Shown piece after piece: positions 2,462 through 41,334 of a stretch of 52,349 nt of DNA. This DNA is from Chloroflexota bacterium. Its GTDB lineage: Bacteria > Chloroflexota > Ktedonobacteria > Ktedonobacterales > JACDGC01. The translations under genes were made by a program, and so were the position numbers. The notes beneath the pieces are model-generated. The model was not told where the DNA came from. It made no database searches and saw only the letters and a program-made list of their open reading frames with translations. Where the stretch lies: positions 1 to 52,349 of the forward strand of contig JAJYBV010000009.1 in assembly GCA_021778805.1 (NCBI GenBank), written 5' to 3'. How positions within the stretch are numbered: position 1 is the first letter of the stretch; every line of letters begins with the position of its first letter.

Positions 2462-3571
2462 ATGACATTTCCGCTCGGACCCATTCACCCTGCCTTGCCG
2501 GAGCCAATCAGTTTAAAATTGGCCTTGCACGGAGAGAAAATTACAGGCGTAGAAACGCATACGGGATATTTAAAACGCAGCGTTGAAACCCTGATGCTGC
2601 AAAAAAATCTTGCAGATGCGCTGATTTTGGCTGAACGAATCTGCGGAACCTGCGGCTACAGCCATCGTTATGCGCTTTGCCTTGCTATTGAATCGCTTGC
2701 CGGAATAACACCGCCGCCGCGCGCACAAGCATTGCGCGTTGTATTCGCCGAAGTAGAGCGCATATTAGCGCGGCTGTGGACCCTGGCGCATATTGGGCGC
2801 GCGGCAGAATTAGGCGCGCTGTATACAGGATCGCTTGAGGCGCGCGAGGTACTGTTTGAAGCGTGCGCCGACGCCGCGGATAAACGACTGTTTTGGGAGA
2901 TTGCCGTTCCGGGCGGTGTACAAAATATTCAAGATCCGCAAGCAATAATCGACGCCATACAAGCATTGCAATCGGTACTTGCTCCGTTTGATCGGTTGCT
3001 TTCCCCGAAAGGGGCGCTGGTAAACCGCGCCAATTCGGTTGGAATAGTAACGCAAGACGCCGCAGAAGAAATGTGCATGAGCGGACCCGGCGCGCGCGCC
3101 GCGGGTGTTATGCGCGATGTACGGCGGGATGCGCCATATGATATCTATGCGCAAATGGCGGATATTCTTTCAACAGACCCTATCACGGGCTTTATAGCCG
3201 GCAGTGCGCCGGCGCGGGCATATCAAATGCTGATGGATATTCAGGAAAGCATGCGAATCATTACCGCAATATTTGATGAACTGCCCGATGGGCAGGAACG
3301 CGCAGCGTTGCCGGATATTTTACCGCCCGAAAAAACCGCTGTTACGATAGAAGGAGCGCGCGGCGCAGAAACGCTAACGCTTGAATTAAACGCCAACCGC
3401 GGAACCAACGCCGACCTTACCATGCCCGGATTTATTAAATCTATTGCTTTTGCCACCCCAAGCGGTGAAAATATCGGAGCGCTTCCGGTTATATTACAAG
3501 AAACTTTGCTTTCAGATGCGCTGATAGCGCTTTCCAGCCTGGATCTTTGCATTGCCTGTGTAGATAAATAA
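2462..3571 (+). CDS. Group-4 (energy-converting, Ech/Mbh-like) [NiFe]-hydrogenase large subunit, NuoD-like, 369 aa.
   Basis: The N-terminus GPIHPALPEPISLKL resembles the EchE/NuoD N-terminus. The L1 motif R-I-C-G-T-C-G-Y-S-H matches RxCGxCxxxH. The protein ends with the L2 motif D-L-C-I-A-C-V-D-K, matching [DE][PL]CxxCx[DE][RK]. There is no C-terminal extension after L2, as in Ech-type enzymes. GGAG lies 8 nt upstream of the ATG. Confidence 0.75.
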   Translation: MTFPLGPIHPALPEPISLKLALHGEKITGVETHTGYLKRSVETLMLQKNLADALILAERICGTCGYSHRYALCLAIESLAGITPPPRAQALRVVFAEVERILARLWTLAHIGRAAELGALYTGSLEAREVLFEACADAADKRLFWEIAVPGGVQNIQDPQAIIDAIQALQSVLAPFDRLLSPKGALVNRANSVGIVTQDAAEEMCMSGPGARAAGVMRDVRRDAPYDIYAQMADILSTDPITGFIAGSAPARAYQMLMDIQESMRIITAIFDELPDGQERAALPDILPPEKTAVTIEGARGAETLTLELNANRGTNADLTMPGFIKSIAFATPSGENIGALPVILQETLLSDALIALSSLDLCIACVDK

Positions 3572-7289: not shown

Positions 7290-7454
7290 AAAACATCGCA
7301 AATGAGCAGAAAAATGCAACGCCAATACTGATTTTCGTAATTACGCAGGGGATTTTGACAAGGTCTCCATAAAGCAAAAGATACCGCGCGATATTGATAG
7401 TCAGGCAGCAAGGGCGCCAATATTGCCCTGGGAATATTTTTTTTAATAAAAAAA

Positions 7455-7510
7455 TTGGGGGGACACCCCAATCCCCGCGCAACGGGCTACCGCCCCTTAC
7501 GTATCCTCAG
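7455..7510. repeat. Solo copy of the GGGGACACCCC palindromic repeat unit.
   Basis: The sequence ggggggacaccccaatccccgcgcaacgggctaccgccccttacgtatcc has the same unit architecture as the arrays at 29981-30235, 40594-41035 and 45749-46193. Confidence 0.8.
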
Positions 7511-7572
7511 TTTTGTGCGCCGCGCCGAAGCAAAAGCGCCATAAAATAACAATACTGATTTTTTATCTTATC

Positions 7573-10360: not shown

Positions 10361-10496
10361 TTTTTTTAGGCAAAACACCAACCAAAATCTACATCAGAAA
10401 TTTGCGCATTCTTAAGCGAGATGTTTGTTATCTCAATATCACTAAAATGCGTCATTTCCAATGCAGCGGTTAGTACATACTATAAGGAGACTTCAC

Positions 10497-11522
10497 ATGC
10501 TTGATTTATTGCGCATACTGCAAGAAAGCGCGTTAAAAGCGCTGCTTTCTGCCGAAACAAGCGCCGAAATTGCGCAATGGCAAAATTTGTATTTAGGGCG
10601 GCAAGATGGCGAATTAACTAAAATTCTGCGCGGATTAAAAGATGTGCCGGCAGCAGACCGCAAAACCATCGGTCAACGCGCCAACGAAGTAAAAAATGAG
10701 CTGGAAGAGCAAGCCGAACTGCGCAAAAAAGCTATCGCAGAGCAAGAACTTGTAAGCGCTTTAGTTGCGGAACGACTAGATGTTACGTTGCCGGCCCGCA
10801 CGCTGAACAGCGGATATATGCACCCCATTTCACAAACAATTTACGAAATCTGCGGTATTTTCCAAAAACTTGGCTTTCATGTGATTGAAGGACCCGAAGT
10901 TGAAACTGATTATTATAACTTTCAGGCGTTAAATATTCCGCAAGACCACCCCGCAAGGGATATGCAGGATACTTTTTGGGTTGAGCCAGGCCAAATTTTA
11001 CTGCGAACTCAAACATCGCCCAACCAAATTCGAATTATGGAGCAAACTAAACCGCCGGTGCGCGCCGTTGTTCCGGGCAAAGTCTATCGCAACGAAGCGA
11101 CCGACGCTACCCACGAAGCCATGTTTCACCAAATAGAAGGCCTTGCAATAGATTCTTCAACCACTATGCGCGACTTGCGCGGCGCGTTGGAAGCTTTTGC
11201 CCGAGAGTTATTTGGCCCGCAAACAAAAACACGGTTTCGGCCGAGTTATTTTCCATTTACGGAACCCAGCGCAGAAGTTGATGTTACTTGCAATGTTTGT
11301 GGCGGCTCTGGCTGTAGAGTTTGCAAGTTTTCCGGCTGGGTTGAAATCGGCGGCAGCGGCATGGTGCACCCGCAAGTGCTGCGCAATGTGCAATACGATC
11401 CCGCGGTATATCGCGGATATGCGTTTGGCATTGGCGTAGAGCGCATTGCAATGATGCGCTATGGTATCAATGAAATTCGCCTGTTCTCTCAAAATGATCT
11501 GCGGTTTTTACGGCAATTTTAA
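10497..11522 (+). CDS. pheS: Phenylalanine-tRNA ligase alpha subunit.
   Basis: The class II aaRS core is present, including FPFTEPSAE and GWVEIGGSGMVHPQVL motifs and the conserved C-terminus ...RYGINEIRLF. An AAGGAG Shine-Dalgarno sequence lies 7 nt before the ATG at 10497. The track ORF begins earlier, at 10461. Confidence 0.9.
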   Translation: MLDLLRILQESALKALLSAETSAEIAQWQNLYLGRQDGELTKILRGLKDVPAADRKTIGQRANEVKNELEEQAELRKKAIAEQELVSALVAERLDVTLPARTLNSGYMHPISQTIYEICGIFQKLGFHVIEGPEVETDYYNFQALNIPQDHPARDMQDTFWVEPGQILLRTQTSPNQIRIMEQTKPPVRAVVPGKVYRNEATDATHEAMFHQIEGLAIDSSTTMRDLRGALEAFARELFGPQTKTRFRPSYFPFTEPSAEVDVTCNVCGGSGCRVCKFSGWVEIGGSGMVHPQVLRNVQYDPAVYRGYAFGIGVERIAMMRYGINEIRLFSQNDLRFLRQF

Positions 11523-11631
11523 TGAAATCGCCAACAGTTAGGGCTTCTATTTGTGCGGTTTTATGGAAGATTCACATCCTTCGCGCAAATTTTGCGGATT
11601 TGCAAATTGACCTATTTTTTGCGGAATAAAG

Positions 11632-11710
11632 ATACGAGAGACCTAAGCCAAAAGCGGATTCGGGGAGGACACCACCGACTTTATGCGTTACGTCTGCCCA
11701 AATCTCTAGT
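11632..11710. repeat. Degenerate copy of the 'agagacctaagcc...gggg.gacacc' MITE-like element.
   Basis: The sequence gagagacctaagccaaaagcggattcggggaggacaccacc is shared with the copies at 24211-24331 and 36357-36440. Confidence 0.5.
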
Positions 11711-11769
11711 AACTGCGCACAAATTAAAGGAACACCCTGGCAAGATAACATACAAAGGAACACATCACT

Positions 11770-12807
11770 ATGAAAATCATTATTTCGGGATACGGAGCGG
11801 TAGGTCGCTATTTGGCTGAATTATTGGCGGAAAAAGAAGCCGTTTTACAAGATACATGGGGGCTTGCTATTGAAATAACCGGAATTACCACCGGCGCGCA
11901 TGGCGCTTGGATCACAGATAACGGCGCCGGTTTGCGCGCTGCGGATATTATTGCCGCAGGCTGGCCAAAATCGGGGAAATTGCCCAGTGGAGCTAAACCA
12001 TTTACCGGCAGCACCCTGGAAATATTAAATGCTGCGCCGGCGGATATGCTGGTGGAAATTTCACCCCTGAATCCGCACTCCGGTGAACCGGCGCTTTCGT
12101 ATGTGCAAGCAGCGCTGAGCAAAGGCGCGCATGTTGTTACCGCAAACAAAGGCCCCATTGCCCACGGCCTGCATGAACTGCGGAAACTGGCAGCGGCAAA
12201 TCATTGCCATCTTCGATATGAATCTACTGTTATAGATGGGCTGCCTGTTATCAATCTTGCGGAATTTACATTGCCGGCAACTGAATTTACCGGGGTTCGG
12301 GCAATAGTCAACGCAACCAGCAATTATATTCTTTCCGGCTTAATGGCGGGACAAAGCTTTGATGAAACACTCAGCAAAGCACAGGAAATCGGCATTGCCG
12401 AGGCAGATCCCAGCATGGATTTAGATGGATGGGACGCATCGGTAAAATTGACTATCCTTGCCAATACGCTGATGAACGCCGATATCCGCCCCACAGATGT
12501 CGAGCGCATTACCAACGCTGAATTAATGCAGCAAATGACGCAAAATGCGCCGGCCGGGGCTACGATAAAACAAATCGGCGCCATCTGGAAAGACGCCGGC
12601 GCGCCGGCCGGAATACGCGCCAAAGTTGCTTTGGAAATACTCGCTCAAGAAGATTCTTTAGCCGGAATCGGTCAAGGCAAAGCGGCGCTGCAGTTGCAAA
12701 CCGACACGATGAATGATGTGACTATTATTGAAGGGCCGGGAACACCACGACAAACCGCGTTTGGCATTTTGGCGGATATTATTACCATTGCCCGCGAAAG
12801 GAAATAA
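11770..12807 (+). CDS. hom: Homoserine dehydrogenase, 345 aa, lacking a C-terminal ACT domain.
   Basis: The N-terminal NAD-binding motif GYGAVG is present, along with VVTANKGP, the catalytic Lys, LRYESTV.DG.PVI, the substrate-binding region ATSNYILSG, and AQEIGIAEADPSMDLDGWDASVKLTILAN. Confidence 0.8.
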   Translation: MKIIISGYGAVGRYLAELLAEKEAVLQDTWGLAIEITGITTGAHGAWITDNGAGLRAADIIAAGWPKSGKLPSGAKPFTGSTLEILNAAPADMLVEISPLNPHSGEPALSYVQAALSKGAHVVTANKGPIAHGLHELRKLAAANHCHLRYESTVIDGLPVINLAEFTLPATEFTGVRAIVNATSNYILSGLMAGQSFDETLSKAQEIGIAEADPSMDLDGWDASVKLTILANTLMNADIRPTDVERITNAELMQQMTQNAPAGATIKQIGAIWKDAGAPAGIRAKVALEILAQEDSLAGIGQGKAALQLQTDTMNDVTIIEGPGTPRQTAFGILADIITIARERK

Positions 12808-12814
12808 GATTTAT

Positions 12815-15379
12815 ATGAAAGTTCCGTATCATTGGCTGAAAGAGTATGTCTCTTTCGATGCAAGTCCGGAAGAGCTTGCAGAAAAACTTACTATGGCAGG
12901 GCTGGAAGTTGAAAGCGTAGAACACGTTTGGAATAACATTATTACCGCCCGCATCAATCATTTGGAACCGGTAAAAGGCTCCAGCCATTTAAACGCAACG
13001 AAAATTTTTACCGGCGAAGGCCGTGAATTAAGCGTAGTGTGCGGCGCGCCAAATATTAAGGAAGGCGATATTGTGCCGCTAGCGCTGCCCGGCGCGCAAT
13101 TTTTTAATGACGCCGGCGAAACACTGACGATTCAGGCCACAAAAAAAATGGGCGTGGTTTCCGAAGGCATGCTTTGCTCGCCCCGCGAACTGGGGCTATC
13201 GAGCGATCATGAGGGAATTTATATTTTACCAAATGATACCCCGCTGGGTGTTTCACTGGCAGACGCGGTTATTCACTTGGATATTAAAGCGCACCGCGGA
13301 GATTTGTTCAGCATGGTGGGGATTGCCCGCGAAATGGCCGCTTTATTTGGCGCAAAGCTGAAGCAGCCCGAAATTAAATTACCCGAAAAAGGCAAAAATT
13401 CCATCAAAAAAATGGCGTCGATTACCGTGAAAGCTGAAGACGATTGCCCGCGTTTTACTGCGCGTGTTATCCGCAATATCAAAATGGGAAAAGCTCCCCT
13501 TTGGATGGCGCAACGATTAGCGCTCGCCGGAATGCGTTCCATAAACGTTATTGTTGATATAACCAATTATGTCATGCTAGAGTTAGGCCAGCCGCTACAC
13601 GCCTTCGATTACGATAAAGTTGCCAATCATCACCTGATTATCCGCCGCGCTGAACCGGGCGAAACGTTAGGCACGCTGGATGGCGCTATGCGCGAACTGA
13701 CACCGGATATGGTTTTGGTGTGCGATGAATCCGGGCCGCTTTCCGTTGCCGGCGTTATGGGCGGCGCATCCAGCGAAATTTCATCGGATACAACGCAGAT
13801 TTTGCTTGAAGCGGCTTCTTGGAATCCCGTAAATATTCGCAAAACATCGGCAAAATTAGGATTGCGCAGCGAAGCTTCCAGCAGATATGAAAAAGGCGTC
13901 GATCCGGAATTGGCGTTGCAGGGATTAAATCGCGCCGCACAATTAATGGCTGAATTAGCGGGCGGAGAAATTGTTCCGGGATACTTGGAGTCTTATGCTC
14001 ATCCGTCTCCTAACGTAACAATTCCATTCCACGCCAGCGCCTGTGAATGGCTGCTGGGGTACTCGGTAACTCCTGAAGAAGCTGCCGGCGCGCTGCGATC
14101 TTTGGAATTTGCTGTAGAGCAGAATAGTGATGATGGCTCTATGCTGGTAACGGTTCCCAGCTGGCGCGGCGATATTCTGGAATCGGCAGATTTGGTTGAA
14201 GAAATTGCCCGAGAATTGGGATATGACCGTATTACGGGAAAATATCCGACCGGTGACGCGCCGGAACCGCAAGCGGCGAACTGGTTTGATATTCAATATC
14301 AATTCCGCCGCCGGCTGCAGCAATGCGGCTGCGCAGAGATTGTTACATATCCGCTGACCAATCAGCGCTCTACACTGCAATTGCTGACCGATGAAAGCGA
14401 CACAGCGCAATTGCTGATTGGCGCGGTAGATGAGCTGGCTCCTGCAGAAAAAGGCAAAAAAAATAACGGGAAAAATAAACAGAAACAACAATCGGCGCAG
14501 TCTGTTTCCGAAACATATGATCAGGCAATACCTCCATTGTCAGCTGATGAACTGCCGGCGGTCAGACTGGTAAACGCTATCAGCGCAAAAATGGATATGC
14601 TGCGTATTACGCTGATGAATGCCATGCTGGAAACTATTTCGGCAAACTTACGATACGGAAACGCTTCGCTGCGGCTTTTCGAGATTGGACGCAGATACAT
14701 TGCGCTGCCAAACAGCGAACGGCAATTGCCGGATGAACGCCGCACGTTATGCGTTGGGCTGACCGGTTACACCGAAAGTTGGACCGAACCGCGCCGAGAA
14801 TATGATTTTTTTGATATGAAAGCGATTATTGAAAATATTGCCGGCGGACTGCATATGACAAATCTGCGCTTTACTCAAACGCAATCGCCAATATTTCATC
14901 CGGGCAGATGCGCGCTGTTAGAGGTGGAAGACAGCCACGCTAAAGAATCTCGATTTCACACAATTGGCGTAATGGGAGAAGTGCACCCAATTATTGCAGA
15001 GCGGTTCGGTATTTCGCAGCGAACGTATCTGTGCGAGATCGATCTTGCCAGATTATATCTTCACAATACGCCGCCGCGGTTCCAGCCGATTTCTCGATAT
15101 CCGGCGCTGACACGCGATATTGCTGTAGTCGCTGATATTTCAGTGCCGGCGCAAACGATTGCGGATGTTATAAAAGCATCCGGCGGAGAACTTACCCGTT
15201 CCGTTACATTGTTTGATGTTTATATGGGAGATCAGATACCGGAGGGCAAACGCAGCCTTGCGTTTACTGTAGAATATCAAGCGCAGGATCGCAATTTAAG
15301 CGACGCTGACGGAGATTTTTTACGTGAACAAACTGCAAATGAATTGAAAAAACAAGTACACGCGGTTGTGCGTGAATAA
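12815..15379 (+). CDS. pheT: Phenylalanine-tRNA ligase beta subunit.
   Basis: The N-terminus MKVPYHWLKEYV is the canonical PheT start. The B3/B4, B5 and anticodon-binding-like regions are present. A lysine-rich low-complexity insertion (EKGKKNNGKNKQKQQS) is encoded around 14440-14500. The start is placed at 12815, 8 nt after the hom stop, with an AAAGGAAATAAG Shine-Dalgarno-like sequence. The track ORF starts upstream at 12728. Confidence 0.9.
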   Translation: MKVPYHWLKEYVSFDASPEELAEKLTMAGLEVESVEHVWNNIITARINHLEPVKGSSHLNATKIFTGEGRELSVVCGAPNIKEGDIVPLALPGAQFFNDAGETLTIQATKKMGVVSEGMLCSPRELGLSSDHEGIYILPNDTPLGVSLADAVIHLDIKAHRGDLFSMVGIAREMAALFGAKLKQPEIKLPEKGKNSIKKMASITVKAEDDCPRFTARVIRNIKMGKAPLWMAQRLALAGMRSINVIVDITNYVMLELGQPLHAFDYDKVANHHLIIRRAEPGETLGTLDGAMRELTPDMVLVCDESGPLSVAGVMGGASSEISSDTTQILLEAASWNPVNIRKTSAKLGLRSEASSRYEKGVDPELALQGLNRAAQLMAELAGGEIVPGYLESYAHPSPNVTIPFHASACEWLLGYSVTPEEAAGALRSLEFAVEQNSDDGSMLVTVPSWRGDILESADLVEEIARELGYDRITGKYPTGDAPEPQAANWFDIQYQFRRRLQQCGCAEIVTYPLTNQRSTLQLLTDESDTAQLLIGAVDELAPAEKGKKNNGKNKQKQQSAQSVSETYDQAIPPLSADELPAVRLVNAISAKMDMLRITLMNAMLETISANLRYGNASLRLFEIGRRYIALPNSERQLPDERRTLCVGLTGYTESWTEPRREYDFFDMKAIIENIAGGLHMTNLRFTQTQSPIFHPGRCALLEVEDSHAKESRFHTIGVMGEVHPIIAERFGISQRTYLCEIDLARLYLHNTPPRFQPISRYPALTRDIAVVADISVPAQTIADVIKASGGELTRSVTLFDVYMGDQIPEGKRSLAFTVEYQAQDRNLSDADGDFLREQTANELKKQVHAVVRE

Positions 15380-15453
15380 CTGATGTGCGCAGCGCGGGCA
15401 AAATTCTTTTACCGGAGTTTCTGCCTACGCCGCCTGTACACAATTAAAGGCTG

Positions 15454-16422
15454 CTATTGCTCCATACTGATAACTATTTTGCCGTGAACATGGCCATTTT
15501 GCATATGCTTTATTGCTTGAATCGTTTCCGAAAACGGATATATGCGGTCGATAATTGGTTTTATTTTTTGAGCTTCAAGAAGGTCTTTAAGATAGAGCAG
15601 ATCCGCAGGAGTTGGAGTGGTCATCATATTTGCTATTTTTTGTTTTTTGTTTCCTGCAAATGGCGCGCCAGCCATCATCATTTCCAACATAGACCGCATT
15701 ATTTTAGAGCCGCCAACCCCAACATACACACCTGCAGGGCTTAAAATATGCCGATACGCATGTATTGAATGATAGCCGTTGATTGCAATAATACTATCAA
15801 ATTGAACGCTGCTTGCAGTAATATCTTCAGCAGCATAATCTACAATATGATCAGCGCCTAACGCATGCGCAATTTCTATACTGTTAGCGCCGCAAACAGC
15901 TGTAACTTCTGCCCCAAACAGTTTTGCCAACTGCACAGCAAAAGTTCCAACTCCCCCGCCTGCGCCTTGAATTAATACCTTTTGCCCCGGCTGTACCTTT
16001 GCGCGATCCCTTAACGCTTGCAGAGCAGTTATCGCCGCTATTGGCGTTGCGGCAGCTTCAGCAAACGAAAGTGATGCAGGCTTAAGCGCTACGGCTGTTT
16101 CACCGGCAGTGGCATATTCTGCAAAAGAACCGCTGCCCCGGCCAAACACCTCATCACCTGCTTTAAATTTGGTAACATTACTTCCAACTGCTTCTACAAC
16201 ACCGGCTAAATCTACTCCTACTTTGGGATCGGAAGGTTTAAACAGTCCGCCCATCAAACGCACCAATGGAATATCAGCAATTATCAAGTGCAGATCTAGC
16301 GCATTAACGGAGGCCGCATGCATCTTTATGAGAAGGCGATTTTCTTTCAGCGTTGGCTTTTCAATTTCTTTGAATTGGAGGTTATCAACTGAACCGTATT
16401 TTGTACAATAAACGGCTTTCAT
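15454..16422 (-). CDS. NADPH:quinone oxidoreductase or zinc-independent medium-chain dehydrogenase/reductase.
   Basis: MDR-superfamily features include the GAGGGVG nucleotide-binding motif, a GroES-like N-domain and AGETAVALKP. Confidence 0.75.
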   Translation of the reverse strand: MKAVYCTKYGSVDNLQFKEIEKPTLKENRLLIKMHAASVNALDLHLIIADIPLVRLMGGLFKPSDPKVGVDLAGVVEAVGSNVTKFKAGDEVFGRGSGSFAEYATAGETAVALKPASLSFAEAAATPIAAITALQALRDRAKVQPGQKVLIQGAGGGVGTFAVQLAKLFGAEVTAVCGANSIEIAHALGADHIVDYAAEDITASSVQFDSIIAINGYHSIHAYRHILSPAGVYVGVGGSKIMRSMLEMMMAGAPFAGNKKQKIANMMTTPTPADLLYLKDLLEAQKIKPIIDRIYPFSETIQAIKHMQNGHVHGKIVISMEQ

Positions 16423-16539
16423 GTGTACTTTTCCTTTATTTTGCGGCTAATTGGGTACTTTCAAACCATAGAATGGCTATTCTAACCACTGCCCGGCTGC
16501 ATCAGTCACGAATTCATAGGGTGCGCCGGTCTCTTACGC

Positions 16540-16640
16540 AGAGTTTGTGGCGTCCCCAAAGACATTTTAAAAATGAAACGCCGCGCTGCACTTTTCGTTA
16601 TGTGGCCTTTGTCGATATCCCCTGAGTAGTTACGAAGTTT
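16540..16640. repeat. Degenerate remnant of the GGGGACACCCC/MITE element family.
   Basis: The sequence ggcgtccccaaagacatttt ... atgtggcctttgtcgatatcccctgagtagttac shares the terminal 'ccctgagtagttac' segment with the 18544-18846 and 29935-30400 elements. Confidence 0.5.
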
Positions 16641-17092: not shown

Positions 17093-18541
17093 TTGCGCGG
17101 CGCCATATTTGATATTAAAAATGGATTTTATATGCCGCAAGAACATCGATCAGAAAACCAGCGGGATGAACCGCAGCAAATTCTTATTGCGACCTGCCGC
17201 GCGCAGCCCGATAGCAGCAACGAGCACAATCATACACCACTGCCGGCAGGAAAATATGCCTTTATTTTAACGGAACGCCGCGCGGCGTCGGCAAAGCCGC
17301 AATGCGGATGTTATACGTGCGCAAATTCAGAGCGGTATCGCATTATCCGCGAAGAGCCGGCACCGCAGGGCGATATTATTTTAGTAATACATGGATTTAA
17401 CTGCACTGAAGACAGCGGCGCCGATACCGCCTTAAATATACGGCAGGCTCTGCGCGCTTGGAAATTTCCCCCGGATTCCGCGGCGCGCCATGAAAAAAAA
17501 CTATACCCCACTGTTGTTGGGTTTACATGGCCATGTATGCACGATCTTTTCCCCGGTTATATTTCCGACAAAGAAAGTGTTGCCAGATTTGCTTCTTTTT
17601 CCCTGGCCAATGTATTATGGGATCTTCGCAAGGCAGAGCCGGAGAGAAAAATACATATTATTGCGCACAGTATGGGATGTTTTTTGGTTGTAAAGGCGTT
17701 AATGTCTTTAGGAATATTGCATGGGCTGACAGAACAATGCCCAATTGTAGATACGGTTATGATGCTGGCGCCGGATGTTAACGCATCAGCGCTGGAACGT
17801 TCAACCCCAGATTTTATTTCTTTAGCGAGGCGCGGATTTCGCCGCCGCGGTAAAGCGTTTTTTTCATTGAAATATCGGTTCAGCCGGCCTATCACCGCGC
17901 CGGCAGCTACGCATCCAACCATTGAGTTTTCTCCGTTGAACCATCCTATTGATGGTTTTGGCTACGAAGCGTTAGACGCCATAAAACAATTACATATTTT
18001 TAACTCATTCAATGATGAAGCGTTATGGATTTCTCCGCTGGCAAATATGCTAACGGAGGAATCAATCAGCGCCGACAGCCATGTGCGGCTTGGCTGGTGC
18101 GGCCCGCTGCGACCGCAGTATTTGCTGCAAACCGAGCGCGAACGGCCGCGTGATATTCGTTTATATGATTGCTCCGCGATCATATACGAGCACGGCCAAT
18201 ATTTCTTTCATCCGGATATTCAGCGTGTTATTGCAGCAATACTAACGGAATCGCAAAATATTCCCGGCGCCACACAGTATCCAAATTCGCTCACTTCACT
18301 GCAATCTTGGCTTGCCGGCACACCGTTGCAATATCCGCCGAATCCGGCAGAGCCGATTCCAGAGGGATTGCGTTTTTACTCATTCGTCAGCAATGTGCCG
18401 CAAAACCAGATTATACCCACCGCAGAGCATGGCGCGCCAACACAAAATCCTAATGTCATGCTAAAATTATGGGGATCGCCATTCCGTTTTATTCTGCGCT
18501 TTTGGGTATATATACTGCAAAAAATCTTTAGGTTAGGCTGA
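17093..18541 (+). CDS. Alpha/beta-hydrolase-fold protein of the DUF900 (PF05990)-like type.
   Basis: I-L-V-I-H-G-F-N and V-V-G-F-T-W-P match the DUF900 'VHGYNN...FSWPS' signature. The nucleophile elbow is A-H-S-M-G-C. The start is uncertain, with an alternative ATG at 17132. Confidence 0.55.
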   Translation: MRGAIFDIKNGFYMPQEHRSENQRDEPQQILIATCRAQPDSSNEHNHTPLPAGKYAFILTERRAASAKPQCGCYTCANSERYRIIREEPAPQGDIILVIHGFNCTEDSGADTALNIRQALRAWKFPPDSAARHEKKLYPTVVGFTWPCMHDLFPGYISDKESVARFASFSLANVLWDLRKAEPERKIHIIAHSMGCFLVVKALMSLGILHGLTEQCPIVDTVMMLAPDVNASALERSTPDFISLARRGFRRRGKAFFSLKYRFSRPITAPAATHPTIEFSPLNHPIDGFGYEALDAIKQLHIFNSFNDEALWISPLANMLTEESISADSHVRLGWCGPLRPQYLLQTERERPRDIRLYDCSAIIYEHGQYFFHPDIQRVIAAILTESQNIPGATQYPNSLTSLQSWLAGTPLQYPPNPAEPIPEGLRFYSFVSNVPQNQIIPTAEHGAPTQNPNVMLKLWGSPFRFILRFWVYILQKIFRLG

Positions 18542-18543
18542 TC

Positions 18544-18846
18544 GTAACTACTCAGAGAGAACCAAAGCTTTGCATAAATAGGACATATACCACAAAATGA
18601 ACACCACATGTTGATGGTCTTAACTCAATGAAGTAGGTCATAAACAAAACTAACGCAAAAGATACAGCGAAACGCAAGCGGCAAGGGTCGCCCCTACCGG
18701 ATTGCATCGCCTCATGGGTACCGCGCAGTGGTTCATTTTATATAAAAATGTATTTGGGGACATCCCATTCCCCGCGTAAGGGGCAGCTGCCCCTTACGAA
18801 TCCCTGCATATGTGGCAGAGCAAGAGTATGATACCCCCTGAGTAGT
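18544..18846. repeat. MITE-like element with 12-bp terminal inverted repeats (GTAACTACTCAG / CTGAGTAGTTAC) carrying one GGGGACA(T)CCC palindromic unit.
   Basis: The left end is cgtaactactcagagagaacc (18544-18564). The right end is gataccccctgagtagttacc (18826-18846). The internal unit ggggacatcccattccccgcgtaaggggcagctgccccttacgaatcc lies at about 18758-18806. The right-end segment is homologous to the left end of the 29935-30400 element. Confidence 0.65.
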
Positions 18847-18857
18847 TACCAAAATTA

Positions 18858-20168
18858 CTAAGTGTCGGATTTTTTGGCCAGCGGCAAGGTAAAATAAAAC
18901 TCACTGCCGGAACCCAGCCGACTTTTTACCCATATTTGCCCATGGTGTGATTCCACAATGTGCCGCGCAATCGCCAAGCCAAGCCCTGTGCCTTTGCGCT
19001 GCTCTTCGGTGAAAATTTTGGCAAACTTACCGGCGTCGCGCGTGGGCAATTCCCGCGCCTTGAAAAAGCGCTCAAAAATCCTGGGAATATCATCTTCGGG
19101 AATGCCAACTCCGGTGTCGCTCACTTTTACCGTAATGCAAGGTTCATCAAAGCGAATAAATTTTATCGCCGAGGGATCGCGAGTTAATAAGCTGAGTTTG
19201 CCTTCGCTTAATGTTCCCAAAGAAGCGCTTAATGTAATTTCACCTTCTTCGGGAGTGAATTTAATTGCGTTATGAATTAAATTCACAAGGGTCTGTTCAA
19301 TGCGCGCCGCATCGGCTTGGGCAAAAGGCAGCTGTTCGTTTAACTGCGCTGTAATGGTGATATTGCGTTCTTTAGCCAACGGACGCATACGTTCAGCGGC
19401 AACTTCCAGCACACCATTAATATCCGTTGGTTCCAGCTCCAGATGAATCCGGCCGGATTCTATGCGGCTTAATTCCAGTAAATCGTTGACCAACTCTGTT
19501 AAATGATCTACCTCAACAACAATGCGGCCGGCAAATTCTGCCGCGGCGGCAGGATCTTCATGCACAGTATCGGCCAATGTTTCAGCCAGCAGTTTGGTAG
19601 ACGCCAACGGTGTGCGCAATTCGTGTGAAACGGATGTAACAAAATCTTTACGCACTGTTTCCAAGTAGCGCAATTGGGTTTCATCTTCTATAAAAAGCAG
19701 CAAATGCGATGGCAAAGTCGCTTCAGAGCTAGAGCGCGGCTCTAAAAAAAGCGGCTTGATAGTAACATGCCAAACTTCATCTTGCGCAGAGCGGGTAATC
19801 GTGCGTTCCTGCATAACACCGGTTTGAGCGGCGGCGATCATCAGCTGAGTTGTTTCATAGTCATTCACGGCTTTGATCAGCAATTTTCCAATTACTTTTT
19901 CGTAAGTTGCGCCAATAAAATAAAGCGCGGCAGGGTTAACATCCACAATTGTCCTGTCAAATTTTGCCAACAAAACCGGTCTGGGAATCGCTTCTATCAG
20001 CATATGAATAATTTCCAGTGAAGAAATACCGGATGTGCGCGCCGCCGAGACTTCGGCAGTTTGTTTAGCGTTTGCGCCGGAAAGCGCAGATTGGTTTCGC
20101 TCAATCAGTTTCCACAAAATTGCGGAAAGTATCAGCGCAATAATAAAACCAAATACAAAAGATTCCAT
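18858..20168 (-). CDS. Sensor histidine kinase (TM, PAS, HisKA and HATPase_c domains) with no adjacent response regulator.
   Basis: The H-box is S-H-E-L-R-T-P-L-A-S. The G2 box is G-T-G-L-G-L-A-I-A-R-H-I-V-E-S-H-H-G-Q-I-W-V-K-S. An N-terminal TM helix is present. Confidence 0.8.
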   Translation of the reverse strand: MESFVFGFIIALILSAILWKLIERNQSALSGANAKQTAEVSAARTSGISSLEIIHMLIEAIPRPVLLAKFDRTIVDVNPAALYFIGATYEKVIGKLLIKAVNDYETTQLMIAAAQTGVMQERTITRSAQDEVWHVTIKPLFLEPRSSSEATLPSHLLLFIEDETQLRYLETVRKDFVTSVSHELRTPLASTKLLAETLADTVHEDPAAAAEFAGRIVVEVDHLTELVNDLLELSRIESGRIHLELEPTDINGVLEVAAERMRPLAKERNITITAQLNEQLPFAQADAARIEQTLVNLIHNAIKFTPEEGEITLSASLGTLSEGKLSLLTRDPSAIKFIRFDEPCITVKVSDTGVGIPEDDIPRIFERFFKARELPTRDAGKFAKIFTEEQRKGTGLGLAIARHIVESHHGQIWVKSRLGSGSEFYFTLPLAKKSDT

Positions 20169-20499: not shown

Positions 20500-20830
20500 G
20501 TGGATGGGCAGCCATAAAACGAACACCACACGATGAATCACGTGGCTTGTTTCCCCATTTCCTCCACCCATGTTGCGGTGCGCAATACTCAATATTTCGC
20601 ATGAATTGCTATATGAATACAAACACAGCGCGGTACACATTGAGGCAATGCAATCCGGTAGGGGCGACCTTTGCGGTCGCCCTTGCCACCCGGCAAATAA
20701 TATTGCATTAGGGAATAAAAAGATATTTTGGGGACACCCCAAACCCCGCGCAAGGGGCTACCGCCCCTTACGTATCCCTGGTTACGCAGGTATATCTTAT
20801 CCCTCTTTAAAAGTGAAAGATCATCATCAT
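20500..20830. repeat. Composite repeat element comprising the 'aaaacgaacaccacacgatgaatc...' module, one GGGGACACCCC unit, and the terminal 'cgtatccctggttacgcaggtatatcttatccctctttaa' segment.
   Basis: Each of the three parts recurs in the roughly 650-bp copies at 40560-41215 and 45541-46192. Confidence 0.7.
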
Positions 20831-21007
20831 GTGGCTTGTTTCCCTACTTCCACTTATTTTGCCACCATGTGGTATTTGTTCTTTTTATCAACTACATCAA
20901 TGCAAGCTGTTTCTCTTAAATTCCCCTATTGACGGCTTTATTCATTTCGTGTATAGTGGGTTTGTGCGGATTACCGCACATATTTTATTCATAATTAAGG
21001 AGCTTTT

Positions 21008-21112
21008 ATGAGCGCAAATCGATTGCAAAAGCAAGCCCCCACACGGCTACAAGCACACGGCTACAAGCACACGGCTACAAGCACACGGCTACAAATATTC
21101 TACTATTGTTAG
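21008..21112 (+). CDS. Candidate 34-codon upstream ORF (leader peptide) containing four 14-bp tandem repeats.
   Basis: An AAGGAG Shine-Dalgarno sequence lies 5 nt before the ATG at 21008. The ORF MSANRLQKQAPTRLQAHGYKHTATSTRLQIFYYC ends at TAG 21110-21112, 5 nt before the TTG start of the next gene. It is too short for the supplied ORF track. Confidence 0.3.
   Translation: MSANRLQKQAPTRLQAHGYKHTATSTRLQIFYYC
21041..21096. repeat. 14-bp direct tandem repeat (acacggctacaagc) in 4 copies, 3 of them perfect.
   Basis: Read directly at 21041-21096. The unit length is not a multiple of 3, and the repeat lies inside the upstream ORF. Confidence 0.9.
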
Positions 21113-21116
21113 AATA

Positions 21117-22304
21117 TTGAGCGCCTTCTTATTGATGATGGGATTCATTTTATCCTTGCCGGCGCCTTCCTATGCTTCTACCACCAACACCGGCCCAAAT
21201 AGTGATAACCCTGCTGCTTCTCCCGCTTCCTCACCTGCTGCTTCACCTACCGTGCGGCTTCGTGAGCCGGTTAAGCAGAACCCAACTTGGGTTGCAGCAA
21301 AATACTCTTTTCGAGTGTTTAGCGGCATTAATCCGAATCTTCCAATTAAAGGTCAAAAAATCTCTCCATTCGTCTTGCCCATCAGTCCTTTAAAATGCCC
21401 TACGCCTGTTGCTAACAGCGCTGCACCCAATCCTTTGTGTGGCTCAACACCTCCAACTGCCTATACCTTAACTCAAGATACCTATAACAAAAATACTTGG
21501 GAACCCAGCGACGGCACAGAACCCAATTCTCCCGGAGGCAGCTCTGCGGATGATCTTGGTGACGCATATAATTCAAATATTCCTGGCGTTCCAAGCAATA
21601 AAGATTTTTATGACCTGTGCGGTCCCGGCGCTACAGATATTGCCTTGGATTTTTGGCCGGCTCCGCCTAATTTGCTGGAAAACGTTACGGATGATCCCGA
21701 TTATGATAAAGCTGTTAACTATACCAGAAGCATTAACTTGCAAACTTATTGGAACGGCACTCGCATGCGCGGCTATATGACTTATCTCGCTTGGCAAACA
21801 CAAGCGCCAACTTGGCCTACAGCTGGCATGATGGATACCAGCACATACCCTTCAAATGGCGTTACTGAGTATGATATTCAAGATGCGCTCAATTGGGAAG
21901 CTTCAGGCCATAATGTGAGCACATGGCAGAACTATTTTTACTTAATAACTTGGTGGAATAAATCCTCTGCAAGCGGATTAAATCAAGACGTTGTTACAGA
22001 TGTTGCAAATTCACATGTTCCCGTTGTTGCTGAAGTAAACGCCGCTATGCTGCCAAATTGGGTAGATCATGGACCAGGTCTTGTAAAGCATCAGATAGCG
22101 ATTATTGGCTACGATAACATAAAGGGAACCTACACCTATGTTGATACCTGCGCAAATTTTACAAAATGTAATGTCGAAACTAATCCAATTAACGAAAACA
22201 ATTGGCATACTGTTCCACAATCAACCATGTGGCAAGCCATAATCGCGGTACCTGTCAACACCAGCCCGCTGCCGCAATACGGTGATGGCGGCTGGGTGTG
22301 GTAA
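21117..22304 (+). CDS. Secreted papain-like cysteine peptidase (Peptidase_C39_2/BtrH-like fold) with an N-terminal Pro/Ser/Ala-rich linker.
   Basis: It has a hydrophobic N-terminus. The candidate catalytic Cys is in L-C-G-P-G-A-T-D-I-A, the His in H-Q-I-A-I-I-G-Y-D-N, and the Asp in Y-V-D-T. The start is a TTG at 21117, or an ATG at 21138. Confidence 0.4.
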   Translation: MSAFLLMMGFILSLPAPSYASTTNTGPNSDNPAASPASSPAASPTVRLREPVKQNPTWVAAKYSFRVFSGINPNLPIKGQKISPFVLPISPLKCPTPVANSAAPNPLCGSTPPTAYTLTQDTYNKNTWEPSDGTEPNSPGGSSADDLGDAYNSNIPGVPSNKDFYDLCGPGATDIALDFWPAPPNLLENVTDDPDYDKAVNYTRSINLQTYWNGTRMRGYMTYLAWQTQAPTWPTAGMMDTSTYPSNGVTEYDIQDALNWEASGHNVSTWQNYFYLITWWNKSSASGLNQDVVTDVANSHVPVVAEVNAAMLPNWVDHGPGLVKHQIAIIGYDNIKGTYTYVDTCANFTKCNVETNPINENNWHTVPQSTMWQAIIAVPVNTSPLPQYGDGGWVW

Positions 22305-24210: not shown

Positions 24211-24331
24211 GCTAGAGACCTGAGCCTAAAAATGGAATAAGAGGAATCGGGGGACACCCCCGGCCCCGTCAGGAGGCATACTGCCTCCTGCGCCTCCTGC
24301 TTTGTGCTTTACGTATGCTCAGGTCTCTAGC
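24211..24331. repeat. 121-bp MITE-like element with perfect 15-bp terminal inverted repeats.
   Basis: The left terminal repeat gctagagacctgagc (24211-24225) is the exact reverse complement of the right one, gctcaggtctctagc (24317-24331). The interior carries gggggacaccccc and a caggaggcatactgcctcctg hairpin. It is related to the copies at 11632 and 36357. Confidence 0.8.
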
Positions 24332-28495: not shown

Positions 28496-29875
28496 TCAAC
28501 TTGCGCTGGATTTATTCATCCTATTATTGTACTCCTTCTCGTAATTATCTGCAAGTTGCAGCAAATTCATTTCCGCTTCAGCGGCGTTAAAAGGTAAAAG
28601 CGGATTCATAATCGAGTCGTTGGCGGCAGTATTAAACGCCATCGCTATCTCACGAATTACATTTGGGTTGGTAACACGGCGCATACGAACTGCGTTATAA
28701 GCTTCAGCCAGCGCCTCGGGTGAAAGCAGCGCTGCAGACTTCATTGCGCCGGGCAGCGGAAAAACGGAGTGCGCTGAGCCTGGGCGCAGCGGATGCAGAA
28801 CATCTGCGCTCATATCTGCGAACATATCGCCGGCAACGGTTTCTTGGCGGACCGGCCGCGCCGATGCTACAATCTGCCGGCGACTTTCCGTAAATGCCGT
28901 CAGCCGGGTTTGCGTAACCACAATACCCCATCTGCCAACTTCATATTGCAATTTGCTGCGCATATACATGGAAATCGATTCAGTTGCGGCTGAGCCAAAC
29001 GGCTCAGTTTCATCATCACATAATTCTGCCGAGTTATAATCATTTATCAAGTCGCGGCAAATTCGTTCTGCGGTTGTTTGGATATATTCTTTCCATGGTT
29101 CGTTTAGTTTTAACAAATTATTAGCCTGCTGTGGCGCAATATGATACAGCGCATGCAGCGAAAAATCTATCTGCTTTGTGTCTCGTGTGACAACTTCGCG
29201 CATCGTAATATCCAGCACCATATCGTGGGTTGGCACAATAGCCCAAATATGTTCACCCGGTGTCCGAATATGCAGGCCGGGTTCCAGTGTTCGGTAATAT
29301 TTACCGAATAAAACCGTAACATGCGCGGAATTTTCCATTACCGGATAGATCATAAGCCGAATAACGATAATGATCAGCGCGCTGCTTCCAATAGAAAACA
29401 AAAAGGTTGGCCAAAACCCAAATATTACCCAACCGGAAACCGCCAAATAGCACATTGCGCCAGTTAAAGCGGCTATCGACCATATAGCGTCGTTTGGCGC
29501 ATAATACAGGGCGGCGCTTAACACAACACCAATAGCAATAAACACTAGCGCTGTTGGCCCCAATATACCAATATTCATGCGGCCGTTTAATATTTGTCCG
29601 CCTTTTATCGCCAGCAAGATTAAAAGCAGAAACAGCGAACCACCAAGCAGTGTGGGAATGAATAATGGAGAATTCTTTTTGAACACTTTTAAAGAAAACA
29701 GTGATTCTTGTTCTTGATCGGCGCTGTACCGCGGATATGGATGTTCGCGTAAAGCTATGGCAGAACGTTTCTTTAAGTATTTAGCAACATCAAGCTGTCT
29801 TTGCTGTGAGATTCCATCCTTCCTCATGATCCGAACTCCATCCCTTATTCCGCTATGATATATGTGTATGCGCAT
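28496..29875 (-). CDS. Membrane protein with 4 TM helices followed by an SPFH/band-7 (stomatin, flotillin, HflK-like) domain.
   Basis: Four hydrophobic helices between aa 70 and 185 are followed by V-T-V-L-F-G-K-Y-Y-R-T-L-E-P-G-L-H-I-R-T-P ... D-M-V-L-D-I-T-M-R-E-V-V-T-R-D-T-K-Q-I-D-F-S-L-H-A-L-Y-H-I, the SPFH signature. Confidence 0.55.
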   Translation of the reverse strand: MRIHIYHSGIRDGVRIMRKDGISQQRQLDVAKYLKKRSAIALREHPYPRYSADQEQESLFSLKVFKKNSPLFIPTLLGGSLFLLLILLAIKGGQILNGRMNIGILGPTALVFIAIGVVLSAALYYAPNDAIWSIAALTGAMCYLAVSGWVIFGFWPTFLFSIGSSALIIIVIRLMIYPVMENSAHVTVLFGKYYRTLEPGLHIRTPGEHIWAIVPTHDMVLDITMREVVTRDTKQIDFSLHALYHIAPQQANNLLKLNEPWKEYIQTTAERICRDLINDYNSAELCDDETEPFGSAATESISMYMRSKLQYEVGRWGIVVTQTRLTAFTESRRQIVASARPVRQETVAGDMFADMSADVLHPLRPGSAHSVFPLPGAMKSAALLSPEALAEAYNAVRMRRVTNPNVIREIAMAFNTAANDSIMNPLLPFNAAEAEMNLLQLADNYEKEYNNRMNKSSAS

Positions 29876-29934
29876 TTACATACACGTATATGTATCGGCA
29901 TATTGAGTGAAATTCTGAAGGCCTTTCAATTTTG

Positions 29935-30400
29935 TACCTACTCAGAGGGTATCATGCTTTTGCCTGGCCACATATGCCAAGGATTTGTAAGGGGCGGTAG
30001 CCCCTTACGCGAGGTTTGGGGTGTCCCCAAATACATTTTTTATATAAAAAGGAAACACCGCACGGTACACACAGGGATTCATAAGGGGCGGTAGCCCCTT
30101 ACGCAGGGATTGGGGTGTCCCCAAAATCTCTTTTTTTATATAAAAAGGAAACACCGCACGGTACACACAGGGATTTGTAAGGGGCGGATGCCCCTTGCGC
30201 GGGGTTTGGGGTGTCCCCAAAATTATTAATAAAAACCATATTCGCAAAGCAATATTGGCAGCGCTTGTGCTTCGGAGCGGTGTAGGTGGCCATCGGCCAC
30301 CAACGCCGCACTGGAGCGCAAACGCCGTACCGTATTTTTTATGTTATTTGGATACTCCTCCCTCTTTGCGGATTTTGTCAATATCTCTTGAGTAGTTACG
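29935..30400. repeat. MITE-like element with imperfect terminal inverted repeats (GTA(C/A)CTACTCAGAG) containing a tandem array of three palindromic units of about 95 bp.
   Basis: The left end is tacctactcagagggtatcatg. The right end is tctcttgagtagttacg. Units start at about 29981, 30075 and 30171, and each contains ggggcggtagcccc and ggggtgtcccc hairpins. Confidence 0.7.
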
Positions 30401-30510
30401 TTTGCTTTTCGGAAAAAATTCATGCTATTGCCAGATGTTTTTTGCTATAGTTGTAATAGGGCTGTTTACCTGCGAATAAACAATGGACATAACTGGAAGC
30501 AATTTTTATT

Positions 30511-31602
30511 ATGAAAACATGGCTGCATCGCGTTCAAATAACAGCGCCAATACTACTTTTACTTTTATTATCTTCCTGCGGCGTGCCGGGTGTTATTTCG
30601 CAAGGAAATTCACTGCCCGCCGCGCAGCCTACAGCTACGCCAACAGCGCTGCAGCCAATCCATCTGCCATGGGATGAAGCGCCTCATAGTGATTTAACGG
30701 AGTGGTGGTATTTCACCGGGCATTTCTCAGGAAAAGACGCTTCCGGAGCCACAAGGTCATATGGATTTGAGCTGACATTTTTTCAAGTATTGCGTGGATT
30801 TGTTCCGCCAACATATATTGGTCATTTTGCAATTACCGATATCAACAGAAAGCAATTTCATTATTTGCAGCAGCTGCAAATAGAGCCGAACGCGGTTATA
30901 CCCAATGGAACTTCAGCAGATGGATTTCATTTAAAAATTGGCGACTGGTTTATGAATGGCCTGAACGGGCAAGATACGATTGGCGCATCTATGTCTGGGT
31001 ATTCACTTCAAGTATCTTTGGCAAGCCAGAAACCTCCGGCGCTGCATAACGGAGGGCTTTTAAACTATGGTAACGCTGGTTTTTCTTATTATTATTCATA
31101 CACACACTTGGCTTTAAAAGGAACCATCACTGATAATGGCGCTGTTATACCCATTACCGGGTTAGCATGGATGGATCATCAGTGGGGGAATTTTATTGGC
31201 GTGGGAGGAATCGGCTGGGATTGGTTTAGTGTTCAATTAAACAATAATACTGAATATATGATTTATGTTATTCGGGGCGCAAACGGATCCCCAGTATCTT
31301 TATTTGGCACATTTATCAACGCGCAAGGTATCTCAACAAAAATACCTGAATCAACTCTGAAAGAGCAAGTTTTAGGAACGTGGAAAAGTCCGCAAACAGG
31401 AATCACCTATCCTTCGGGATGGAAACTTCAAGCCGCGGGTACAGTTATAACCATAACGCCAGTACTGCAAAATCAAGAATTGAACACAACACAAACTACG
31501 GGTAATATTTATTGGGAAGGCGACTGCCAAGTAAGCGCTGAGGTAAATGGCGCCACAATTCCGGGTTCTGGCTACACCGAGTTAACCGGATATGGCGCCT
31601 AA
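30511..31602 (+). CDS. AttH/CrtC-like (lipocalin-like domain) lipoprotein.
   Basis: The signal peptide carries an L-S-S-C lipobox. D-L-T-E-W-W-Y-F-T-G-H-F ... Y-G-F-E-L-T-F-F-Q matches the AttH 'EWWYFTGHL...GFQLTFFR' signature. Confidence 0.55.
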   Translation: MKTWLHRVQITAPILLLLLLSSCGVPGVISQGNSLPAAQPTATPTALQPIHLPWDEAPHSDLTEWWYFTGHFSGKDASGATRSYGFELTFFQVLRGFVPPTYIGHFAITDINRKQFHYLQQLQIEPNAVIPNGTSADGFHLKIGDWFMNGLNGQDTIGASMSGYSLQVSLASQKPPALHNGGLLNYGNAGFSYYYSYTHLALKGTITDNGAVIPITGLAWMDHQWGNFIGVGGIGWDWFSVQLNNNTEYMIYVIRGANGSPVSLFGTFINAQGISTKIPESTLKEQVLGTWKSPQTGITYPSGWKLQAAGTVITITPVLQNQELNTTQTTGNIYWEGDCQVSAEVNGATIPGSGYTELTGYGA

Positions 31603-35585: not shown

Positions 35586-35613
35586 TGTTCATGTCATTTA
35601 CACCGACATAACT

Positions 35614-35649
35614 TGGTTATTTTGGTTATTTTGGTTATTTTGGTTATTT
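35614..35649. repeat. 9-bp tandem repeat (ttggttatt) in 4 copies.
   Basis: Read directly. The last copy overlaps the stop codon of the minus-strand gene 35644..36135. Confidence 0.85.
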
Positions 35650-36356: not shown

Positions 36357-36440
36357 AAGAGACCTAAGCCTAAAAAGAAATAAGAGGAATCCGCGGCGAC
36401 ACACCAAACCACGCGCAAAGGGCTGGCGCCGCTTATTGTG
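36357..36440. repeat. Degenerate copy of the 'agagacctaagcctaaaaa..aataagaggaatc' element.
   Basis: Compare the left half of the 24211-24331 element. Confidence 0.5.
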
Positions 36441-40457: not shown

Positions 40458-40559
40458 CGAAGCCTGCTCCTATTGAAGCATGATAGCTGAAGCGCGCCGT
40501 CGCTAATGCGGAGCTGGCGCCGCAGCCCACAATATCAGTATATCATATTTGGTTATGAA

Positions 40560-41215: not shown

Positions 41216-41334
41216 TATTGAAATTGCCAAGGCGCTATAATTTTTATTGGCGTGTTTAACAGAACTGTGATAGGATACAATCAAGGCAAATCAACATAGT
41301 TCAGCAATGCAAAAAAATTTAGAGTGAGAACCGT

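Follow-up and report, generated by a model that had tools for sequence, protein, structure and literature searches.

Elements with terminal inverted repeats in the window

We analyzed positions 1 to 52,349 of contig JAJYBV010000009.1 (assembly GCA_021778805.1) of an uncultured Chloroflexota bacterium, and this whole 52,349-nt stretch is referred to as the window. The nearest named homologues of its PheS protein come from metagenome-assembled genomes (MAGs) of Ktedonobacterales (65–67% identity), and a tRNA search of the window found none. Its intergenic regions contain small elements bounded by terminal inverted repeats (TIRs), which a first-pass annotation of the sequence had read as resembling MITEs (miniature inverted-repeat transposable elements). 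Two complete elements share their ends and were assigned to family 1; one is located between the convergent genes of a DUF900 hydrolase and a histidine kinase, and the other between divergent Band_7 and CrtC-like genes. A third complete element has different ends (family 2). All three are shorter than ~600 bp, and their longest stop-free stretches are 64 aa (18544–18849), 112 aa (29934–30399), and 38 aa (24211–24331). The coordinates of all features are listed in Table 1.

The first family-1 element starts with GTAACTACTCAG (18544–18555, plus strand) and ends with the exact reverse complement CTGAGTAGTTAC at 18838–18849; that is, the 12-bp inverted repeats of the first-pass annotation were exact at 12 of 12 positions, and its right boundary of 18846 had to be moved to 18849. 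The second element has the left end GTACCTACTCAG and the right end TTGAGTAGTTAC, each with one mismatch to the family-1 12-mer. It had been described as having imperfect, related ends and three internal units, and we recovered it in this form, with 2.6–3 tandem copies of a 94–96-bp unit at 29978–30240. Allowing up to two mismatches, the 12-mer was found 8 times in the window against 1.2 expected, and none of 100 shuffles reached 8. Within the window, family 1 amounts to five good ends and one decayed end, and the 20-nt consensus of the ends is GTAACTACTCAGRGGRTATC.

Two types of end were distinguished by the sequence that follows the terminus. The A-type end, GTAACTACTCAGrGGGTATCATrCT...GCCACATATGC with a unit at a fixed distance, is present at 29934 and, when read inward, at 18849. 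Copies of the B-type end, GTAACTACTCAGGGGATATYGACAAA, lie at 16633 and 30399, on another contig (L004), and in decayed form at 7337, where the 12-mer copy reads GTAATTACGCAG; B-type ends are homologous to each other over 35–55 nt. In the 306-bp element, the A-type end is the right side and a single unit is located at 18753–18806. The 466-bp element runs from a left A-type end (GTACCTACTCAGAGGGTATCATGC) through its units and a variable part of ~160 nt to a right B-type end (..GACAATATCTCTTGAGTAGTTAC). The A-type half, comprising the end and the first unit, forms one block of 145 nt with 83% identity between the two complete elements.

An exact 13-bp direct repeat, CAATACTGATTTT (7323–7335 and 7550–7562), brackets the stretch 7337–7549, which holds the decayed B-type end and one unit. 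This repeat is longer than the 8-bp duplication of the IS66 family, and no right end is recognizable inside it.

Table 1. Positions of inverted-repeat elements, relics, and repeat arrays in the window
Feature	Position	Strand	Description
Complete family-1 element	18544–18849	.	306 bp; perfect 12-bp terminal inverted repeats
Complete family-1 element	29934–30399	.	466 bp; ends 11/12 and 11/12 against the consensus 12-mer
Orphan B-type end	16507–16633	.	Exact CTGAGTAGTTAC at 16622–16633; one decayed unit; no partner end
Decayed B-type end	7337–7549	.	GTAATTACGCAGGGGATTTTGACAAGG at 7337–7348, then one unit (7456–7509)
Left arm of 657-bp inverted repeat	40553–41209	-	~5 tandem 89-bp units at 40602–41016
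Right arm of 657-bp inverted repeat	45545–46201	+	92% identical to left arm, inverted; units at 45738–46153
Module mosaic	20511–20853	.	Inner hairpin module, unit (20727–20780), outer module, second partial hairpin module
Family-2 element	24211–24331	.	121 bp; perfect 15-bp ends GCTAGAGACCTGAGC (24211–24225, 24317–24331)
Decayed family-2-like relic	11634–11712	.	In the pheS–hom spacer
Decayed family-2-like relic	36358–36440	.	AAGAGACCTAAGCC... and a degenerate two-hairpin core

Insertion sequences and small elements with the family-1 ends

The 20-mer GTAACTACTCAGRGGRTATC gave a single match in 185,579 species' genomes, a collection without the window's species. The match is in a Phototrophicaceae (Chloroflexota) MAG (L007) and sits directly after the C-terminus of a transposase; the 56-aa transposase fragment gave no Pfam match and in tblastn matched plasmid genes annotated as IS66-family transposase. 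A complete insertion sequence (IS) of 1541 bp from a metagenome (L033) carries GTAACTACTCAG at both ends, and its left end, GTAACTACTCAGGGGATAT, matches the B-type end of the window over 19 nt. It encodes a transposase of 488 aa, the stop codon of which lies inside the right end. In 3 of 3 proteins tested (L033, L027, and L026), DUF6444, zf-IS66, and DDE_Tnp_IS66 were found in a single open reading frame (ORF). Similarly, an IS66-family transposase gene on the Pseudanabaena plasmid NZ_CP112876.1 ends in ...CCAGCCTGAGTAGTTAC, the terminal 12-mer CTGAGTAGTTAC containing the stop codon, and the IS of a Ca. Chlorohelix plasmid (L026, 1179–2682) is bounded by GTAACAATTCAG and CTGAACTGTTAC and shows the 8-bp duplication AATTATTT. 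ISDge4 of Deinococcus geothermalis, assigned to the IS66 family and there to the ISBst12 group, terminates in GTGACTACTCAGCA and GTAACTGCTCAGCA with an 8-bp direct repeat, and its transposition has been observed (PMC12898284).

The family-1 ends match the IS ends in L033, L027, L036, and L007 and those of the published ISDge4. Since they match L033, the plasmid IS ends, and ISDge4, the ends in the window are, judged by sequence, termini of the ISBst12 group. The terminal repeats (GTAACTACTCAG...) are identical or nearly identical to those of ISDge4, L033, L026, and L027, the subterminal likeness extending up to ~19 nt in the case of the L033 left end. In contrast to these IS, which are ~1.5 kb long, the elements of the window are 306–466 bp, carry no transposase gene, lack the 8-bp duplication, and have an interior of tandem hairpins. 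No DDE_Tnp_IS66 ORF was found between the element ends or elsewhere in the window (Pfam, tblastn); the elements are therefore at most derivatives of the ISBst12 group and not members of it.

This assignment differs from the partners proposed by the first-pass annotation, which had named IS630/Tc1, IS200/IS605, or another family with matching ends. For family 1, a family with matching ends does exist, and it is neither of the two that were named. A TA duplication of the IS630/Tc1 type was initially considered, in which G-TA-ACTACTCAG...CTGAGTAGT-TA-C was taken as TA in a GTAC target. It was dropped because GTAAC is the true IS66-type end and the 8-bp duplications lie outside it, both in L026 and in five metagenome MITEs. 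IS200/IS605 does not fit either, as the ends are terminal inverted repeats of a DDE-type IS and the window contains no Y1_Tnp domain (Pfam). The Correia elements of Neisseria, which are 100–150 bp long, TIR-bounded, intergenic, and able to act as terminators or promoters, resemble the elements of the window as TIR-bounded intergenic elements. However, they have other ends, of 26 bp, and a TA duplication, whereas the TA of family 1 within GTAAC is part of an IS66-type end.

We scanned metagenomes with RATAYCYCYTGAGTAGTTAC, which returned 16 loci. Twelve of them are IS66-family ends or small elements with the end at both sides, and about four look like chance matches, roughly the number to be expected. 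The 12 loci comprise one complete IS (L033), three right ends (L036, L040, and L043), and eight small elements. In L036 and L043, the right end follows the C-terminus of an IS66-family transposase by ~110 nt; L040 retains only the shared subterminal stretch. The eight small elements (L028, L029, L031, L032, L034, L037, L041, and L042; JGI contigs) are 142–322 bp long and have the same ends and GC-rich hairpin interiors. Perfect 8-bp duplications, AAATTGAC, CAAAAAAC, AAAAAAGG, GTTGATTG, and AAAAAGAT, flank five of the eight (L028, L029, L031, L037, and L041), showing that the ISBst12 group spawns MITEs; MITEs of this group thus seem to be widespread. The incomplete literature collection that we searched yielded no paper in which MITEs are connected with the ISBst12 group.

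Two side observations concern these metagenome loci. At least three unrelated families of 142–322-bp elements in environmental metagenomes bear ISBst12-type ends (GTAACTRCTCAG...CCTGAGTAGTTAC). In addition, L038 (~21–40) and L039 (~514–533) have lone 20-mer ends immediately upstream of gene starts, with AGGAGG inside GTAACTACTCAGGAGGTAT in the position of a ribosome-binding site; the two copies may have arisen by chance or may be solo ends that were co-opted for translation.

Bacterial MITEs tied to a resident IS have been described as MITEPsy1 with ISPsy2 in Pseudomonas syringae (PMC3189936) and as MITECca01 with ISCca4 in Cardinium (PMC9769881). They share with the elements of the window a small size, a non-coding interior, intergenic location, ends of an IS family, and apparently a multi-copy status. 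However, MITEPsy1 and MITECca01 show the target duplication of the parent, and the parent IS is present in the same genome, whereas the elements of the window lack the duplication, and for them a parent IS was observed in other organisms only.

Taken together, the family-1 elements (18544–18849 and 29934–30399, with the remnants 16507–16633 and 7337–7549) are probably MITEs derived from an ISBst12-group IS of the IS66 family. The ends GTAACTACTCAGRGGRTATC would be recognized by a single-ORF DDE transposase of the IS66 family, with its gene at another genomic site or since lost, which would bind both ends in trans and move the element, normally leaving an 8-bp duplication. The build would be modular, consisting of an A-type end, one to three tandem units of 89–96 bp, a variable stretch, and a B-type end, with slippage or unequal recombination altering the number of units. 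The duplications may have been erased, and orphan ends produced, when the many copies recombined with one another and when deletions occurred next to them, and such later scrambling would account for both. We infer the transposition of these copies, the cognate transposase now or formerly in the genome, and the route by which the duplications were lost. What stood of the original MITE-like reading is the small size, the non-coding interior, the inverted-repeat boundaries, and ends matching an IS; the duplications did not materialize, and movement as units belongs to the inferred part.

On this interpretation, the transposase family on which the family-1 elements would depend can now be named. 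The ISBst12-group IS, the transposition of which was only recently observed experimentally, has given rise to miniature derivatives in several environmental lineages. The elements are of an ordinary kind in an unusual modular form and leave knowledge of how MITEs work unchanged.

Orthologous sites, two-hairpin units, and competing explanations

We compared the window with contigs of the same species and with a sister species. The same-species contigs are 99.6–100% identical to the window, and all carry the elements. At least seven contigs from other assemblies terminate within the two complete family-1 elements, a pattern that multi-copy repeats would be expected to leave when short reads are assembled. 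Such repeats fragment short-read assemblies of the species and could give rise to chimeric contigs, a practical concern when its genomes are binned or compared. A further B-type end with units lies outside the window on L004, beside a PIN-domain gene. In the sister species, which shows 83–86% nucleotide identity and is syntenic over most of the window, every element is missing at the orthologous site. The first-pass annotation had named a lack of further genomic copies and of empty-site alleles in related strains as refuting its reading; the end in L004 and the contig ends inside elements speak for further copies, and the sister species lacks the elements, so the reading is not refuted on these grounds.

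The spacer between the histidine kinase and DUF900 genes measures 56 nt in the sister species versus 316 nt in the window, and 17 unrelated nt occupy the site of the 466-bp element. Neither the 24211 element nor the 36358 relic is present at its orthologous site. The pheS–hom spacer, in which a relic had been placed by the first-pass annotation, agrees with this placement: it is 247 nt long in the window versus 34 nt in the sister species (L049) and 30 nt (L047) and 14 nt (L048) in two relatives that are more distant. Both 657-bp arrays are also missing, with 186 unrelated nt in place of 40553–41209; unrelated AT-rich sequence is found at the site of 20511–20853, and the spacer of 7337–7549 holds different elements. 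A 1.2-kb block of the window (~15431–16640), containing a zinc-type alcohol dehydrogenase-like gene (15454–16422, minus strand) and the orphan end, corresponds to 20 nt in the sister species. The right edge of this block is 7 nt beyond the inverted-repeat end at 16633, and the gene may have been gained or lost together with the element end. Since ~49 kb of sister sequence contained no family-1 end and almost no units, the repeat burst is apparently specific to the window's species, and the spread of family 1 was most likely recent and within one species. To this extent, a recent species-specific burst of modular repeats is documented in an uncultured Chloroflexota bacterium.

Each unit of 89–96 bp consists of two GC-rich hairpins, TTTGGGGACACCCCAAA and CGTAAGGGGC-N4-GCCCCTTACG. 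The predicted fold of the unit is far more stable than that of shuffles (z of about -3.5; range -3 to -7 across predicted folds). Orientation of the units is head to tail, and their period is 89 bp. Long tandem arrays are found in two inverted 657-bp arms, which bracket ribF, fhaA, an FHA gene, ftsW, and a gene of 117 aa. In the arm at 40553–41209, the tandem units lie between an outer module and an inner one that carries the hairpin CCACACGATGAATCGTGTGG, and the arm has no ISBst12-type end. Aligned to the A-type end, the outer edge of the array covers the subterminal part; since the 12-mer itself is missing there, the possibility that this edge is a degenerate ISBst12-type end was rejected.

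Several observations were made on the arrays and their modules. The hairpin CCACACGATGAATCGTGTGG followed by CTTGTTTCCCC forms a further repeated module at 12704–12723, 20511–20565, 20826–20853, 41054–41108, and 45646–45699; it is terminator-like on one strand and equals the inner part of the 657-bp repeats. Arrays with fewer units are found in L001 and L003. On contig L002 of another sample, the flank with an MCP gene, normally on the right, adjoins ribF and the left array, which is the junction that an inversion by recombination between the arrays would produce; L002 bears the MCP flank at the other end too, and the junction may be an assembly artefact.

The BOX elements of pneumococci, built as boxA-(boxB)n-boxC, resemble this architecture in that two different end modules surround a variable number of tandem hairpin units in intergenic regions. 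They differ in that their sequences are unrelated and their host belongs to another phylum, and the ends in the window match a known IS group, whereas BOX is not known to have a parent IS. The REP/BIME sequences of proteobacteria, associated with RAYT transposases, are GC-rich imperfect palindromes that are abundant in intergenic regions, occur singly or clustered, and form mosaics of modules. The units of the window have these palindromic, intergenic, clustering, and mosaic traits in common with them. However, the units are 89–96 bp long with two hairpins, run head to tail, and are in some copies bounded by DDE-type IS ends, and the window contains no RAYT gene.

This likeness raises the question of whether the two-hairpin unit itself spreads, in the manner of REP/BIME, through a Y1 (RAYT-type) transposase, gene conversion, or another route, the ends being incidental neighbours. 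There are 19 hairpin cores in the window versus 5–6 family-1 ends, arrays exist without ends, and homologous cores are present in families with three unrelated kinds of end in two species, all of which this explanation would accommodate. We nevertheless consider it quite improbable: the window has no Y1 transposase gene, the units follow one another head to tail and do not alternate as in BIMEs, and exact IS termini placed as inverted pairs around two unit-bearing stretches would be left without explanation.

We also considered whether the hairpin-rich stretches are selected regulatory sequences of the host, such as bidirectional terminators or RNA-stabilizing structures, and not mobile DNA. 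The units contain stem-loops that resemble terminators and have T-rich tails, on both strands, and around both complete elements such sites exceeded expectation (5 versus 1.3 expected in 29800–30560; 5 versus 0.9 in 18300–19000). In addition, the 18544 element is located between convergent genes, and the stability of the folds relative to shuffles points in the same direction. A side effect of the units on transcription through these hairpins is plausible; such an effect is compatible with a MITE and by itself does not support a regulatory origin. However, the sister species does without these stretches at every orthologous site, and the ends are transposon ends. Covariation among 18 family-1 unit copies was no better than in shuffles (one compensatory pair), so that the within-family data support no claim of selection on pairing. 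Rfam 15 gave no match at gathering thresholds across the whole window and none at E<=1 in 40500–41260. A regulatory explanation is thus very improbable.

The derivation of the family-1 elements as MITEs has to be weighed against a number of points that count against it. No flanking direct repeat of 2–10 bp, where the first-pass annotation had proposed looking for target-site duplications, was found at any of the three complete elements (18544–18849, 29934–30399, and 24211–24331), whereas the parent group generates duplications of 8 bp. Neither Pfam nor tblastn with an IS66-family transposase revealed a transposase gene in the window, in agreement with the first-pass annotation, and tblastn found no cognate transposase in the few short contigs of the window's species examined. 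The left half of 18544–18849 matches no other copy, its inner end sequence is unlike the A and B types, and apart from the A-type half the two complete elements have dissimilar interiors. Units without family-1 ends are found in both 657-bp arrays and as a single unit at 20727–20780, and on L004 the orientation of the units with respect to the B-type end is reversed, so that either orientation occurs; ends and units may therefore have separate histories. The view of the palindromic units as simple cargo had to be abandoned on the same grounds, together with their presence in long tandem arrays. No strain sampled within the species lacks the elements, so no polymorphism was seen. Finally, the empty sites of the sister species are not clean, the 56-nt and 17-nt sequences there being unrelated; insertion cannot be separated from replacement at these sites, and the insertion event cannot be reconstructed from them. 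At ~85% identity, such unclean sites may be ordinary divergence.

Much of this would also be expected if the ends were fossils, that is, if full-length ISBst12-type IS had decayed in place to single or paired ends and the units had come or expanded independently, the elements never having moved as units. The missing duplications, the orphan ends at 16633 and 7337, the differing interiors, and the units without ends or in both orientations to an end are all in line with such decay, which we regard as unlikely but as deserving serious consideration. The conserved 145-nt block of A-type end and first unit in both complete elements points to the copying of a composite and not to separate arrivals. 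Moreover, complete loss of the transposase gene would be required in every one of several independent full-length insertions within 52 kb, and the ISBst12 group demonstrably forms true MITEs elsewhere. We therefore retain the derivation of the family-1 elements as MITEs.

Further element families and minor observations

The family-2 element at 24211–24331 had been described as a different subfamily with perfect 15-bp terminal repeats. The repeats are perfect, but its ends are unrelated to those of family 1, and it is thus no subfamily as far as shared ends are concerned. Its interior holds a two-hairpin core, GGGGGACACCCCC followed by CAGGAGGCA/TGCCTCCTG. A TA dinucleotide adjoins GAGACC/GGTCTC at both ends, and TA likewise abuts GAGACC/GGTCTC in a related copy in the sister species (L019, ~3420–3535). 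The TA in these two copies is suggestive of a TA duplication. The degenerate relatives reported by the first-pass annotation exist and are not of one kind: 16507–16633 is the family-1 orphan end, whereas 11634–11712 and 36358–36440 resemble the 24211 family.

A third family was observed in the sister species only and is absent from the window. Its ends are GGACTTTCGCTTG...CAGCGAAAGTCC (L022, 9769–9900; L049, 7197–7401 and 7504–7602), and its elements enclose a core homologous to the window units, GGGGACACCCC followed by GTACAAGGG/CCCTTGTAC. For families 2 and 3, no partner IS was identified by end match. Scanning viral contigs with the unit and searching plasmids with the elements gave no meaningful match.

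A homologous two-hairpin core (a GGGGACACCCC hairpin, then a second hairpin of 9–10 bp) is thus present in two sister species inside three families with unrelated ends, namely ISBst12-type ends, TA-flanked GAGACC ends, and GGACTTTCGCTTG ends. The second stem differs by family (CGTAAGGGGC, CAGGAGGCA, and GTACAAGGGG) with pairing kept, in an alignment by eye of few copies. We speculate, with considerable doubt, that the core and not the ends could be the conserved object, a portable, amplifiable module that repeatedly gained new ends and so exploited different transposases; it would perhaps be a terminator or a protein- or transposase-binding cassette. If this were true, amplification of the core into the inverted 657-bp arrays could enclose the essential ribF-fhaA-ftsW cluster in a bracket that is prone to recombination and possibly invertible.

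Minor features of the window were also recorded. The HIP1 motif GCGATCGC occurs only once; an origin from cyanobacteria was rejected on this ground and on that of the Ktedonobacterales PheS homologues. The homoserine dehydrogenase gene adjoins pheS in 4 of 4 genomes compared (window 10461–15379; L047, L048, and L049); pheS and pheT flank it in the window, L047, and L049, and in L048 no pheT follows it within the stretch examined. A perfect 9-bp tandem repeat, TTGGTTATT, in 4.3 copies (35613–35651) lies between an ftsW-like gene (34251–35534) and the 3' end of a DUF1440-like gene (35644–36135, minus strand). A 14-bp tandem repeat, CACACGGCTACAAG, at 21040–21094 has 4 copies in the window and 3 in contigs of other strains (L008–L010). 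It is located between an ATG at 21008 and the ORF at 21117–22304, and each unit shifts the reading frame, making it a candidate slipped-strand phase-variation switch.

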